This document shows, in pieces, positions 1 through 4,217 of a DNA stretch of 4,217 bases; position 1 is the stretch's first letter; the number at the start of each line of letters is the position of its first letter. Location: the IMG/VR virus record IMGVR_UViG_2609459830_000018, positions 1 to 4,217 of that record. The stretch is one strand, 5' to 3'. The notes under the pieces were generated by a model. It did no database searches, was not told the origin of the DNA, and saw only the letters and a program-made list of their open reading frames with translations. Source of the DNA: a virus. Lineage: Duplodnaviria; Heunggongvirae; Uroviricota; Caudoviricetes. The position numbers were made by a program, and so were the translations under genes.

Positions 1-280
<280 letters not shown>

Positions 281-513: not shown

Positions 514-840
514 TCAGGGTGCAGAAGGACTAAAGATAAACGTTTTCTTCACGCCTTTACGCGGCCTGTCCTTCTCAAATCGCCATTTTGCCATCGCCTT
601 TACAACCTGCTCATCAAACAGATGGTGCGGCTCTGAACGGATAAACTCAATTCGGGTGACAGTACCATCAGCACCAATATCAAACTTCACATCAACCCGT
701 CCCTTTATATAATTTGCCGCTGCATAGGCCGGATATTGTGGTAATGCCTTCACCAATTGTCGGGGCATATCTGTTTTATGTTGCGTACAGCCCATAACCA
801 GAGAAGACAACAAAATAATTAACGGAAGATTTCTTTTCAT
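514..840 (-). CDS. Outer-membrane lipoprotein consisting of a TonB C-terminal-domain-like fold (about 108 aa)
   Basis: Minus-strand ORF. N-terminus MKRNLPLIILLSSLVMGC has a basic n-region, hydrophobic core and lipobox-like VMGC with Thr at +2. The mature part ...LPQYPAYAAANYIKGRVDVKFDIGADGTVTRIEFIRSEPHHLFDEQVVKAMAKWRFE matches the remembered TonB_C motif pattern (YP..A....I.G.V.V.F.I...G.V.......S.......D..V..A...WRF). Start chosen at ATG 840 (GGGAA 5 nt upstream); in-frame alternatives are ATG 846 and GTG 855. Confidence 0.65.
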   Translation of the reverse strand: MKRNLPLIILLSSLVMGCTQHKTDMPRQLVKALPQYPAYAAANYIKGRVDVKFDIGADGTVTRIEFIRSEPHHLFDEQVVKAMAKWRFEKDRPRKGVKKTFIFSPSAP

Positions 841-856
841 TTTCATTCCCGGCACA

Positions 857-1178: not shown

Positions 1179-1403
1179 TCAACACACTGGCTGTAATGCA
1201 GCGGATACCATGCGGCATTTAGCGGCATTCATCGTACACTCAACGGTTAGCTCTTCATTCGTGGCATTCACCTGAAAGGTCCGGGAGTGTAATTGCGTAC
1301 ATTTACCACTGAACGAACCTTCAACAAGAACACGACCACGCTGCAAAATACGGAACAGAATTGTTCCCTGAAAAGGCTTTACGGTTACCAGTAATTTCTT
1401 CAT
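1179..1403 (-). CDS. Hypothetical 74-aa protein, translationally coupled to Rz (ATGA overlap)
   Basis: ATG at 1403..1401 overlaps the Rz TGA stop (1402..1400). GGAGGA sits immediately upstream. No hydrophobic segment and no domain I recognise. Confidence 0.45.
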
Positions 1404-1900
1404 ATATCCTCCGGATAATAAAAAGCCAGCTTAGTGCACTGAGTGCGGATATATTCCTGCGCCCCTTCCAGCTGCTTCTGCATTGTCATCAACCGTTCTC
1501 TGAGGATGAAATAATCCCGTTCAGCGGTGTCTGCCAGTCGGGGGCCGGTTGCATTATCCACGCCGGAGGTGGTGGGGGCTTCACGCACGGAGCCTGGACA
1601 GGTGGCGTTGATCCGCAGGCGCTTACGACCAGCGGCAACGTCAGCGCGAAGAGTTTCATTTTCAGCTCTCGCATCGGCTAATTCCCTCGAGTATTTTGCA
1701 TCGAGCGCAGCAACATCGCGCTGGCGCACCTGCATATCAGTAATGGTTGCGTTCGCCAGCTTCAGTTCACTGGCTTTGTTATCGCGCTGCGCTTTGTAGG
1801 TAATCGCGTTATCACGGTAATGGTCTGTTGCCATCCACAGCGCACCACAGGCCACCAGCAGAATAACGATAAACGCGGAAAGCATTCGGTTTATGTTCAC
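1400..1900 (-). CDS. Rz: i-spanin (Rz), inner-membrane spanin subunit
   Basis: Translation ...[45 protein letters not shown]...VAAGRKRL...[34 protein letters not shown]... is near-collinear with lambda Rz as I remember it. N-terminal TM segment present. GTG start at 1900 overlaps the upstream ORF's TGA (GTGA); ATG 1885 is an alternative. Confidence 0.9.
1489..1674 (-). CDS. Rz1: o-spanin (Rz1), outer-membrane lipoprotein, embedded in the +1 frame of Rz
   Basis: Translation [61 protein letters not shown] has a lipobox (VSAC) and the proline-rich [26 protein letters not shown] core characteristic of lambda Rz1. It lies entirely inside Rz in another frame, the classic embedded architecture. Confidence 0.9.
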
Positions 1901-2028
1901 CCCAGCAGCCCCGACGAAGACAACATCATCCAGGCCATGGAAAGAAAAAGAGCAACCAGCATTAGTGAAAATGAAATGCCGACAATTACACAGAGGATCT
2001 TCGCCAGCGTTATGAGTTTGTCTGACAT
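1897..2028 (-). CDS. Small single-pass membrane protein (43 aa), function unknown
   Basis: ATG 2028..2026 is preceded by a strong SD (GGAGGA, 6-nt spacer). The stop TGA overlaps the Rz GTG start. Product [43 protein letters not shown] is dominated by one hydrophobic helix. Confidence 0.55.
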
Positions 2029-2042
2029 GCTTAATCCTCCCT

Positions 2043-2225
2043 TCACGATTTCAACGCAATGACCAGTTTTGCCAGCCCATACAGCATCGGGGACACAGCA
2101 ACACCGACCGCCACCCACTTAATGGCAAAAGCCAGTGCTCTGCTGATGTCATCAGTTACAGGCGCTTTCAGTTCAAGGCCGTTTTTCATGGTCAACCTCA
2201 ACAGAATTCGTTTATACTTCGCCAT
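2043..2225 (-). CDS. Small membrane protein (60 aa) with basic N-terminal region and C-terminal hydrophobic helix, function unknown
   Basis: ATG 2225..2223 is preceded by AGGGAG. Product [60 protein letters not shown]. Stop is 14 nt upstream of the next gene's start. Confidence 0.5.
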
Positions 2226-2258
2226 GTTCTCCCTTGCCTTACTCAAGGTCAGAAACAC

Positions 2259-2381: not shown

Positions 2382-2915
2382 TTATCTGTCGATACCCCAG
2401 CACGCCAGCGCGCTCTCCTGGTCACGACGGGATACCTGACCGTAGCAGTTGTTTGAACGAATACGGCAGTCTCTGCCACCGTCCTTAATCCACCAGCGAA
2501 TCGCCTCACATGCTCCCCTGCGATCACCAGCATTAATTCGTCTGTAAAACGTCGACGGGAAACACTTACCGGGACCAATGTTGTACGGACAGAATGACGC
2601 GATCCCCGCTTTCTGGGGTTCGGTCAATGGCACTTTGATGTTTTTCTCCACCCATGCCAGCGCCTTATCACGTTCGATGGCGTTAACCTGGTCGCATTTC
2701 TCCTTCGACAACTTCATGCCCGGGACGACAGGTTTACCATCCACCAGAATGGCACCGCGACAGATGGTCCAGATACCCGCGCCATCACGGTATGCCGTGG
2801 TGTGGTTACCTTCCTTTTCATCCAGAAACTGGTCGAGAATGTCAGGCGCAGGCGCACCAGCGGCAATCAGCGCCAGAACGGCAGCCGACAGGCCGTATTT
2901 GATTTTGGTGTTCAT
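2382..2915 (-). CDS. R: Phage lysozyme (T4-lysozyme-like muramidase) with N-terminal SAR (signal-anchor-release) type domain
   Basis: N-terminus MNTKIKYGLSAAVLALIAAGAPAPD is a Gly/Ala-rich weakly hydrophobic segment. Catalytic-triad context E..(8)..D..(5)..T is present in EGNHTTAYRDGAGIWTICRG. Overall collinearity with P1 Lyz / phage 21 R type endolysins as remembered. Paired with a pinholin upstream. Confidence 0.88.
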   Translation of the reverse strand: MNTKIKYGLSAAVLALIAAGAPAPDILDQFLDEKEGNHTTAYRDGAGIWTICRGAILVDGKPVVPGMKLSKEKCDQVNAIERDKALAWVEKNIKVPLTEPQKAGIASFCPYNIGPGKCFPSTFYRRINAGDRRGACEAIRWWIKDGGRDCRIRSNNCYGQVSRRDQESALACWGIDR

Positions 2916-2951: not shown

Positions 2952-3509
2952 CTAAATACGCACTTTAAGATAAGTCAGCCCCGGATGAAGCCAGTAAGCC
3001 GGCACTTTTTTAAAGGGGGGAGTATTAAAATCACGAAGAAGAGCCTCCCGCACAATTGCATCCTTATCAGCACCACTGGCCAGCGCTTCAATCTCAGCGG
3101 CTACCTGAAGATATCCCATGCAACGGCCAACGCGCTTCATCAGCCCCTGCTTTTTATTGTTCTTCAGGTAATCAATGGCAAATTCAATGAGCTCCTCACT
3201 GTGCTGGTGCAATGGAGGTGTTACTTTCCCATTTTCTGAGATGGTTATTTTCCCGGCATCACCGGATACAACAAAGGATGGCCGGTTACACTCCCATTCC
3301 AGGTTACTGAAATTATCATTATGAATACTGAAACACTCTGAGAGATTTCTGCTCATCACTTTCCGACAATAATCGTCAAACGCAGCAAACTGCTCATCGC
3401 GGCGTTTTTTTTCATCTTCAGAAGGCATCAGCGTCGACAGTTTTTTATTCAGTTCAGCAATTTCATTTTCCAGACGACTGAAGCGCTGATTCATTTCTTC
3501 ATGGTTCAT
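2952..3509 (-). CDS. Hypothetical soluble protein (about 185 aa) inserted between holin and endolysin genes
   Basis: ATG 3509..3507 has GGGGAG 8 nt upstream. The ORF begins 4 nt after the holin stop and ends 36 nt before the endolysin start. N-terminal about 45 residues are charged and heptad-like (coiled-coil-like). No TM segment or signal peptide by eye. No family recognised. Confidence 0.6.
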   Translation of the reverse strand: MNHEEMNQRFSRLENEIAELNKKLSTLMPSEDEKKRRDEQFAAFDDYCRKVMSRNLSECFSIHNDNFSNLEWECNRPSFVVSGDAGKITISENGKVTPPLHQHSEELIEFAIDYLKNNKKQGLMKRVGRCMGYLQVAAEIEALASGADKDAIVREALLRDFNTPPFKKVPAYWLHPGLTYLKVRI

Positions 3510-3512
3510 CAC

Positions 3513-3719
3513 CTAATCTCCCCGGGCAGCCTTGCGACGGTCCTCTCTGATTTTGAAATACAGGTTAGTCAGATACGTCAGCAGGCCAAACAGCAGACTC
3601 CCCAGCACACCTATCGCCACCCACTGGGACGGAGAGACTTTGTCCAGCAGCTGCAGTAACCAGTATCCCGTCCCCACCGCTGACGTGGTGTATGACACAC
3701 CCGTTGTGATTTTTTCCAT
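3513..3719 (-). CDS. S: Class II holin (pinholin), phage-21 S-like
   Basis: Product [68 protein letters not shown] (68 aa, two hydrophobic segments, charged C-tail) is near-identical in pattern to the S21/EssD pinholin as I remember it. Sits directly upstream of the lysozyme and spanins. Confidence 0.85.
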
Positions 3720-3764
3720 CTGATGTATGTCTCCGTCACCGCCGACAGAAAATGAAAGTAAAGG

Positions 3765-3799
3765 AAAACAAAAAGCCGCCAGTGTCGCCCACTGACGGC
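3765..3799 (-). terminator. tR'-like rho-independent terminator in the late leader upstream of the holin
   Basis: On the minus strand GCCGTCAGTG-ggcga-CACTGGCGGC (10-bp stem with one G-U pair) is followed by TTTTTGTTTTCC, about 45 nt upstream of the holin ATG. The position matches the lambdoid pR'-tR'-S arrangement. Confidence 0.55.
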
Positions 3800-3863
3800 C
3801 AACGCCGGGAGCCGTGATTATGGCATTCAGGCTCTGCTAAAAATGCCAGATAACATTCCGGCT

Positions 3864-4021: not shown

Positions 4022-4217
4022 TTATGCTGCCGGTGCATTTATCTCCAGCACCAGACTTTCTATCTCAACGCCATACGCTGCATTTTTTGTAACATCCGTC
4101 AGCGTCAGCGCATTCAGCCCCAGTGTCAGACTGTCTTTTATAACCTGGAATGCCGGGCCAGCCACTCCATTCAGTTTCGGAGTAACCGTGGCACTGCCGG
4201 CGGTGAACACCAGCTCC
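4022..4217 (-). CDS. 3' end of an unidentified protein-coding gene (continues beyond the right edge of the window)
   Basis: Minus-strand frame is open to the window edge, ending ...ELVFTAGSATVTPKLNGVAGPAFQVIKDSLTLGLNALTLTDVTKNAAYGVEIESLVLEINAPAA with stop TAA at 4024..4022. Composition is protein-like and rich in small/beta-favouring residues. It does not look like a Cys-rich Q antiterminator tail. Confidence 0.4.
   Translation of the reverse strand, partial: ELVFTAGSATVTPKLNGVAGPAFQVIKDSLTLGLNALTLTDVTKNAAYGVEIESLVLEINAPAA

Follow-up and report, generated by a model that had tools for sequence, protein, structure and literature searches.

A DUF1327-less architecture of YdfR-family accessory genes between the pinholin and SAR endolysin genes of an E. 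coli lambdoid prophage

The gene located between the pinholin and SAR endolysin genes of this prophage represents a DUF1327-less architecture of the YdfR-family accessory genes. As part of the late operon of the prophage, it is a functional coding gene, and the encoded protein is soluble, cytoplasmic and built of two modules, an N-terminal helical hairpin or coil (module B) and a C-terminal orphan domain (module D). The YdfR-family slot that it occupies lies within or beside P21-type lysis cassettes and is a locus of shuffling. Patterns of fusion and fission among its relatives indicate that the gene is evolutionarily tied to DUF1327, and we tentatively suggest that module D acts on the same host pathway as this domain.

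A complete gene directly behind the pinholin gene

The window (the whole stretch of 4,217 nucleotides analysed here) covers the late (lysis) region of an EHEC-type lambdoid E. coli prophage. The relevant genes are all on the minus strand:

2952–3509, minus strand: the gene under study, 185 aa, B-D form, ATG at 3509–3507, stop codon TAG at 2954–2952; PHROG 1085
3518–3523, minus strand: Shine-Dalgarno sequence GGGGAG, 8 nt 5' of the ATG and within the last holin codons
3513–3719, minus strand: phage-21-type class II holin (pinholin, S), 68 aa, single-start allele; PF04971, E 8.9e-33
2382–2915, minus strand: SAR endolysin (R, R21-type lysozyme), 177 aa; PF00959, E 1.4e-24
2043–2258, minus strand: small ORF between endolysin and Rz
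1897–2118, minus strand: second small ORF between endolysin and Rz, with a clearly hydrophobic stretch; the pair corresponds to PHROG 1115 and PHROG 4906
1400–1900, minus strand: Rz i-spanin, end of the lysis cassette; PF03245, E 3.4e-49
1489–1674, minus strand: Rz1 o-spanin, embedded in Rz; PF06085, E 1e-21
1179–1403, minus strand: 74-aa ORF starting at the Rz stop codon; PHROG 2571, hypothetical protein in relatives

The coordinates 2952–3509 given for a 185-aa ORF in an earlier, sequence-only reading of this DNA are right, with the gene running from 3509 to 2952 on the minus strand. That reading had described a complete ORF with a Shine-Dalgarno site of its own directly behind the holin stop codon, and both the GGGGAG sequence and a 3-nt spacer are found: the pinholin stop codon TAG (3515–3513) is separated from the ATG by the codon GTG alone. 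This GTG (3512–3510) is in frame, and a start there would give 186 codons. The proposed gap of 36 nt between the stop codon of the gene and the endolysin ATG is likewise present (2916–2951). The holin 3' end CGGGGAGA followed by a nearby ATG recurs in five relatives with other slot alleles. The gene is translationally coupled to the pinholin gene. There is no promoter-like site on the coding strand inside or just 5' of the ORF, so the gene is most simply read as co-transcribed with S and R. An Rfam search of the region gave no match.

The endolysin starts with MNTKIKYGLSAAVLALIAAGAPAP, an N-terminus of the R21 SAR type; in the translation, this segment is hydrophobic and weakly charged. A 13-bp GC-rich hairpin (2291–2259, minus strand) lies directly after the endolysin gene, 5' of both small ORFs; relatives have annotated ORFs of 43–60 aa in the endolysin–Rz interval.

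A member of the YdfR family without DUF1327

The gene is catalogued already but uncharacterised. It had been called unrecognised, which does not hold, as RefSeq has the protein as WP_001364645.1 (hypothetical protein) and it is a member of PHROG 1085. It matches the PHROG 1085 profile with E 2e-111, residues 1–185 aligning to positions 117–296 of 296; the alignment covers only part of the profile because the long homologues carry an N-terminal DUF1327 domain before the sequence shared with our protein. In these proteins of 287–296 aa, which are encoded in the same slot and are named “YdfR family” or “DUF1327 domain-containing” in some sources, almost the whole of our protein (98% coverage, 85–87% identity) follows DUF1327, with its start aligning after that domain. 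The gene is not independent of YdfR: it corresponds to the long YdfR-family proteins over roughly their C-terminal two thirds and lacks only DUF1327. The comparison with DUF1327/YdfR proteins that had been recommended was the right lead.

By contrast, PF07041 (DUF1327) itself does not match the protein even at E 0.1–1, and the gathering threshold of 25 bits is not reached. The gene has the location that goes with the PF07041 family, between a class II holin and an endolysin gene. Because the protein lacks DUF1327 but is a clear member of PHROG 1085, it constitutes a new architectural variant. Searches of Pfam and NCBIfam returned nothing at the score cut-offs and only noise on the coiled coil; PADLOC (PADLOC-DB 2.0) returned no defence family at E up to 0.1, and only noise-level PbeC matches (E 0.01–0.02) on the long relatives. 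When all 32 family members were scanned for named domains, DUF1327 was found in the long forms, and there was no consistent weak match. Thus, the earlier statement that the product has no nameable domain stands, and no confident match to a well-characterised family emerged. A literature search found no published work on modules B or D. What is new is the dissection into modules, the ancient linkage of A and D, the orphan fold of D and its recurrent convergent partner.

Among known systems, the closest are the long YdfR-family proteins (287–296 aa), such as P0033 and P0007, and gp05 of Stx2 phage 86, which are encoded in the same holin–endolysin slot. The long proteins share B and D with our protein, which differs from them in having no DUF1327, in its divergent first 17 codons and in its start directly behind the holin stop codon. 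K-12 YdfR (103 aa, DUF1327/PF07041) is encoded in the corresponding slot of the Qin prophage (essQ-ydfR-rrrQ), as the sequence-only reading had correctly stated. As K-12 YdfR consists of module A alone, the two proteins have no residues in common; they belong to one family in the wide sense because they are alternative parts of the long form.

A helical hairpin joined to an orphan domain

The proteins of the family are assembled from module A (DUF1327), module B (helical hairpin/coiled coil), module C (an optional insert) and module D (approximately 115 aa), of which our gene encodes two:

3330–3509, minus strand: module B, residues 1–60; two long helices, 3–27 and 31–61 (AlphaFold2)
2955–3302, minus strand: module D, residues 70–185; orphan domain of three short strands and four helices

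The AlphaFold2 model based on an alignment of 32 diverse sequences has a mean pLDDT of 83.1 (82–96 in D) and a pTM of 0.60; a model based on only 11 close sequences had a pLDDT of 48.8 and was not used. In the model, a disordered linker (57–67) is followed by the three short strands of D across residues 79–97 and helices at 101–117, 123–144, 151–161 and 178–184. The first helix of B has a leucine-zipper-like heptad pattern (F10, L13, I17, L20, L24, L27). The protein has no membrane segment (maximum 19-residue hydropathy 0.75) and residues 3–61 are predicted to be helical, in agreement with the soluble product with a coiled-coil-like N-terminus described from the sequence alone.

Module B is not confined to this context. 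It also follows DUF1327 in PHROG 2091 and in phage PhiR12_2, and in P0132 (181 aa) it is found behind a domain that has its homologue in the window's 74-aa ORF (1179–1403). Because of this latter fusion, B ties several small late-region domains together. With DUF1327, D and (in P0132) the domain of the 74-aa ORF as its fusion partners, B is a plausible pairing element.

The motifs of module D include H-x-H, GRCMGYLQVAAEIE, (D/N)xPPFK and W..PG..YLK.R, and L115, G128, R129, L134, Q135, A137, P165, K167, W173, P176 and Y180 are invariant down to 27% identity. Using the model of our protein as query, Foldseek found no meaningful neighbour in the PDB (best E 1.9) or in BFVD (best E 0.36), and searches of the PDB sequences with the single sequence and with the profile gave chance matches only. 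We rejected the idea that D is a diverged copy of DUF1327 (hhalign probability 0.15%), and the charge and pI of D, considered as a hint at nucleic-acid binding, are unremarkable (net charge -2 to +5 across the family). D is conserved in relatives with as little as 27% identity, is modelled with confidence and lacks a structural neighbour, and it merits a family definition of its own.

The slot is a site of module shuffling

To survey the slot, 80 IMG/VR loci were chosen by similarity to the window holin, regardless of slot content; 71 of them had both S and R. The slot contents in these 71 loci were as follows:

Empty, with gaps of 7, 37 or 95 nt: 25 loci
DUF1327 only: 27 loci
B-D (D-containing): 6 loci
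A-B-D (D-containing): 4 loci
A-C-D (D-containing): 2 loci
B-C-D (D-containing): 2 loci
A-B: 2 loci
B alone: 1 locus
Opposite-strand gene only: 2 loci

The earlier proposal that the S–R junction is a slot for cargo genes is supported. The slot is filled in approximately two thirds of the related cassettes. The accompanying statement that S and R are normally adjacent is correct for the 25 cassettes with an empty slot, but adjacency is not the rule in this holin lineage.

Overall, the architectures seen in this same slot are A, A-B, A-D, A-B-D, B-D, and B-C-D together with a separate A gene. A 114-aa A-only allele is present on a backbone with flanks 98.2% identical to the window; phage PhiR12_2 has A-B; and gp05 of Stx2 phage 86 (268 aa) is A-D with part of C (A-C-D). 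In other loci, including that of an Stx phage, B-C-D is followed by a separate 75-aa DUF1327 gene. In three loci with this last variant (L013–L015), a 95-aa gene on the opposite strand (4902–5189, minus strand; PHROG 10490) precedes the endolysin gene, and it has a weak, partial PADLOC match to PDC-S51 (E 2.5e-5). The distance from D to R is 36–45 nt in the B-D and A-B-D loci.

When the nucleotide sequence of the window is compared with A-B-D alleles, homology extends through the holin gene to ATGAA and stops there; it is weak from codon 18, and from codon 39 onwards the window is about 97–99% identical to the long form. Because homology stops after ATGAA and resumes at codons 18 and 39, the B-D form is a mosaic allele; this mosaic junction led us to reject the notion of a simple or fresh 5' deletion of a long allele.

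Occurrence, selection and distant relatives

Intact 185-codon copies were found 43 times in public loci, with 26 distinct nucleotide sequences. The Nei-Gojobori dN/dS ratio over the whole gene is 0.25, against 0.22 in residues 70–185 and 0.48 in residues 1–60. By megablast, related DNA is present in 811 of 5426 complete E. coli genomes (approximately 15%), matching over at least 80% of the length in 278 of the 811; the annotation in the 25 best matches is “hypothetical protein”. The form lacking A is also present in Stx2a-converting phages, in the same slot wherever gene order was checked. The ORF is conserved in related prophages. In four loci (L058–L060 and L098), module B of the B-D gene has a frameshift, visible as split tblastn matches in two frames, which shows occasional gene decay in some prophages.

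The family is small, because a profile search of 1.84 billion representative proteins gave 42 matches; the Salmonella relatives came from a profile search of the larger collection. Relatives at 27–40% identity (Salmonella, metagenomic assemblies) keep D, and in most of them the N-terminus is still DUF1327-like (hhalign probability 91%, E 1e-6). Because the distant D-carrying relatives mostly retain this domain, A plus D is the ancestral combination, and the ancestral architecture comprised a DUF1327-like domain, an optional coil and then D. Relatives with coil plus D or with D only exist as well (P0137, P0141, P0155). In Salmonella and other contigs, the D gene lies upstream of the class II holin gene, between Q and S. 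Thus, the association is with the late operon and lysis region and not with the S–R junction itself.

Discussion

Based on these observations, the explanation that we favour, as a tentative one with somewhat less than an even chance of being correct, is that D is a late-expressed cytoplasmic binding or effector module on the DUF1327 (RNase E) pathway and not a lysis component. In this explanation, D would be an autonomous cytoplasmic module that, late in lytic growth, acts on the host pathway addressed by DUF1327, the domain to which it is usually fused. In the window prophage, D would work alone, or it would be paired via the B coil with DUF1327-B proteins supplied by co-resident lambdoid prophages. 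The gene would be cargo of the lysis region, outside the lysis machinery.

In K-12 YdfR, the DUF1327 domain reportedly binds RNase E, in its catalytic N-terminal half, and YdfR co-purifies with RNA; the reported binding of RNase E and RNA maps to residues 1–72 (PMC13232886). Because the only experimentally studied module of the family binds RNase E, D becomes a candidate for a partner or effector through which host RNA metabolism would be controlled in the late phase. The relatives with coil plus D and with D only count in support of the autonomy of D, and fusion and fission within E. coli count in support of the linkage of A and D. Co-residence with DUF1327 genes is plausible because these are present in at least 3647 of the 5426 E. 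coli genomes. On the other hand, the region of YdfR that interacts with RNase E (residues 1–72) is absent from our protein; as it lacks precisely the module that has been studied experimentally, the link to RNase E is one of guilt by association, and D has no relative in fold or sequence to hint at RNA or protein binding. Overproduction of YdfR in K-12 also changed few transcripts (PMC13232886). The separate DUF1327 gene in L013–L015 has no B coil, which makes pairing via B less convincing. Finally, the constant closeness to cassettes with a class II holin and a SAR endolysin also fits a role in lysis.

Such a role would be that of a cytoplasmic factor that is made together with the pinholin and binds the charged C-terminal tail of the holin, or the cytoplasmic, membrane-tethered N-terminus of the SAR endolysin, and in this way advances or delays triggering. 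This fits with the translational coupling to S, only 3 nt from stop to start, and with the frequent occupation of the slot in the window's holin lineage. Down to about 30% identity, all relatives with readable neighbours have a class II holin gene no more than a few hundred bases away, and most also have genes for a spanin and a lysozyme-type endolysin as neighbours. A possible analogy is offered by T4 RIII, P1 LydB, P2 LysA/LysB and the Mu gp25 releasin, which are non-essential and encoded in or near lysis cassettes, as the protein studied here would be. P1 lydB and P2 lysA/lysB are accessory lysis genes, while T4 RIII is, as our protein, a small cytoplasmic helical protein and acts on the cytoplasmic domain of the holin T. 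In contrast to this group, our protein is distinguished by having no membrane segment, and in the Pfam and PHROGs searches no lysis families were seen beyond holin, endolysin and spanins. Unrelated modules (A only, B-D, a lone opposite-strand gene) interchange on the same S/R backbone, the slot is empty in 25 of the 71 cassettes, and the distant relatives lie 160–530 nt from S, sometimes with an intervening gene on the opposite strand. Moreover, what the slot contains bears no relation to the dual-start motif of the holin. This motif, ATG-x-CAG-ATG (S21 71/68 type), is present in 128 of 154 related holin starts; the window holin has ATA CAT CAG before its ATG (3719–3728, minus strand) and is, therefore, single-start, a variant shared by 25 other loci. 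We also rejected the idea that B-D replaces the antiholin: the window holin is single-start, yet start type and slot content are uncorrelated. Altogether, we regard regulation of lysis timing as unlikely.

The same interchange of modules can be viewed from a different angle, because conflict loci typically exchange alleles while the backbone stays constant and shuffle domains rapidly. D could be the late half of a defence, anti-defence or addiction pair, the other half being a convergent gene of approximately 105 codons (PHROG 1853) that runs opposite to the late operon, presumably under a promoter of its own:

L007, 3358–3672, minus strand: PHROG 1853 gene
L009, 5785–6102, minus strand: PHROG 1853 gene
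L181, 585–902, minus strand: PHROG 1853 gene
L182, 436–759, minus strand: PHROG 1853 gene

This gene lies convergently and directly 3' of the D gene in Stx2 phage 86 and in Salmonella prophages, and in two unrelated metagenomic contigs it has the same arrangement and overlaps the D gene; the partner proteins are 26–49% identical. The 95-aa opposite-strand gene of the other slot variant, with its weak PDC-S51 match, points in the same direction. The PHROG 1853 partner is, however, missing from the window and from every B-D and A-B-D locus, so that the window copy would have lost it or would use one encoded elsewhere in the genome. Moreover, neither D nor PHROG 1853 matches a family in PADLOC, Pfam or NCBIfam, our gene is without a promoter of its own, and the dN/dS ratio of 0.25 gives no sign of diversifying selection. 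A conflict pair is accordingly improbable in our view. In one locus (L122), the PHROG 1853 gene is alone in the slot, and the PHROG 1853 proteins have no match among the PDB sequences.

Elements of these explanations can be combined, such that D, as an undescribed fold, and PHROG 1853 form a conserved two-gene module for conflict or late control that recruits RNase E via DUF1327; we consider this combination quite improbable. Such a module would have one half expressed from the late operon and the other in the opposing direction, and it would be a novel type of system for phage-host or phage-phage conflict or for late control; the window would carry a reduced, effector-only version.

Finally, the possibility that the gene is a functionless, decaying leftover of a long YdfR gene without its 5' part, to which the missing N-terminal domain, the few frameshifted relatives (L058–L060, L098) and the interruption of the window prophage by an IS3-family element lend some colour, is very improbable given the 43 intact copies with 26 distinct sequences under a dN/dS of 0.22–0.25, the conserved start context and Shine-Dalgarno site, the use of the same A-less N-terminus (MNHEEMNQ) by 213-aa B-C-D proteins, the divergent first 17 codons that leave no simple deletion scar, and the occurrence of the A-less form in Stx2a-converting phages.

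Regarding its genomic setting, the gene resembles the morons of the late operon (bor, lom, stx, nanS-p): like these, it would be dispensable cargo in a Q-dependent late transcript, lies near the lysis genes and varies between otherwise similar phages. Classical morons usually come with a dedicated promoter and terminator, and their site of action is the lysogen or the animal host. By contrast, our gene has neither a promoter nor a terminator of its own and is translationally coupled to S.

The gene represents one combination from a small shuffled set of parts, DUF1327, a coil and an orphan domain. Related DNA is present in approximately 15% of complete E. coli genomes, and Shiga-toxin-converting phages carry related forms of the gene. 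If the protein influences lysis or late expression in these phages, we speculate that it could affect the timing of toxin release.

Flanking genes of the window

Beyond the lysis region, the window contains three additional genes or gene ends:

514–855, minus strand: TonB_C lipoprotein gene, at the position where lambda has bor; PF03544, E 5.8e-15
74–280, plus strand: 3' end of an IS3-family transposase gene; the annotation of the DEC5D match shows an ISEc31-like element
4022–4217, minus strand: 3' end of a DUF6645/SASA (NanS-p-like) esterase gene, identified from the homologous locus

The IS3-family element sits downstream of the TonB_C gene, where related prophages have ylcI/ynfO, an HNH endonuclease gene and terminase genes; because of this insertion, the window prophage is interrupted. 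The label “Rz-like spanin” that PHROG 1267 attaches to the TonB_C lipoprotein looks like a mis-annotation. In most relatives, the interval between the esterase and holin genes contains DUF1378 and DUF826 genes, which are absent from the window and from L100. In the window, a terminator-like hairpin (11 bp followed by a T-run; 3774–3800, minus strand) lies between the DUF6645/SASA esterase gene and the holin gene.
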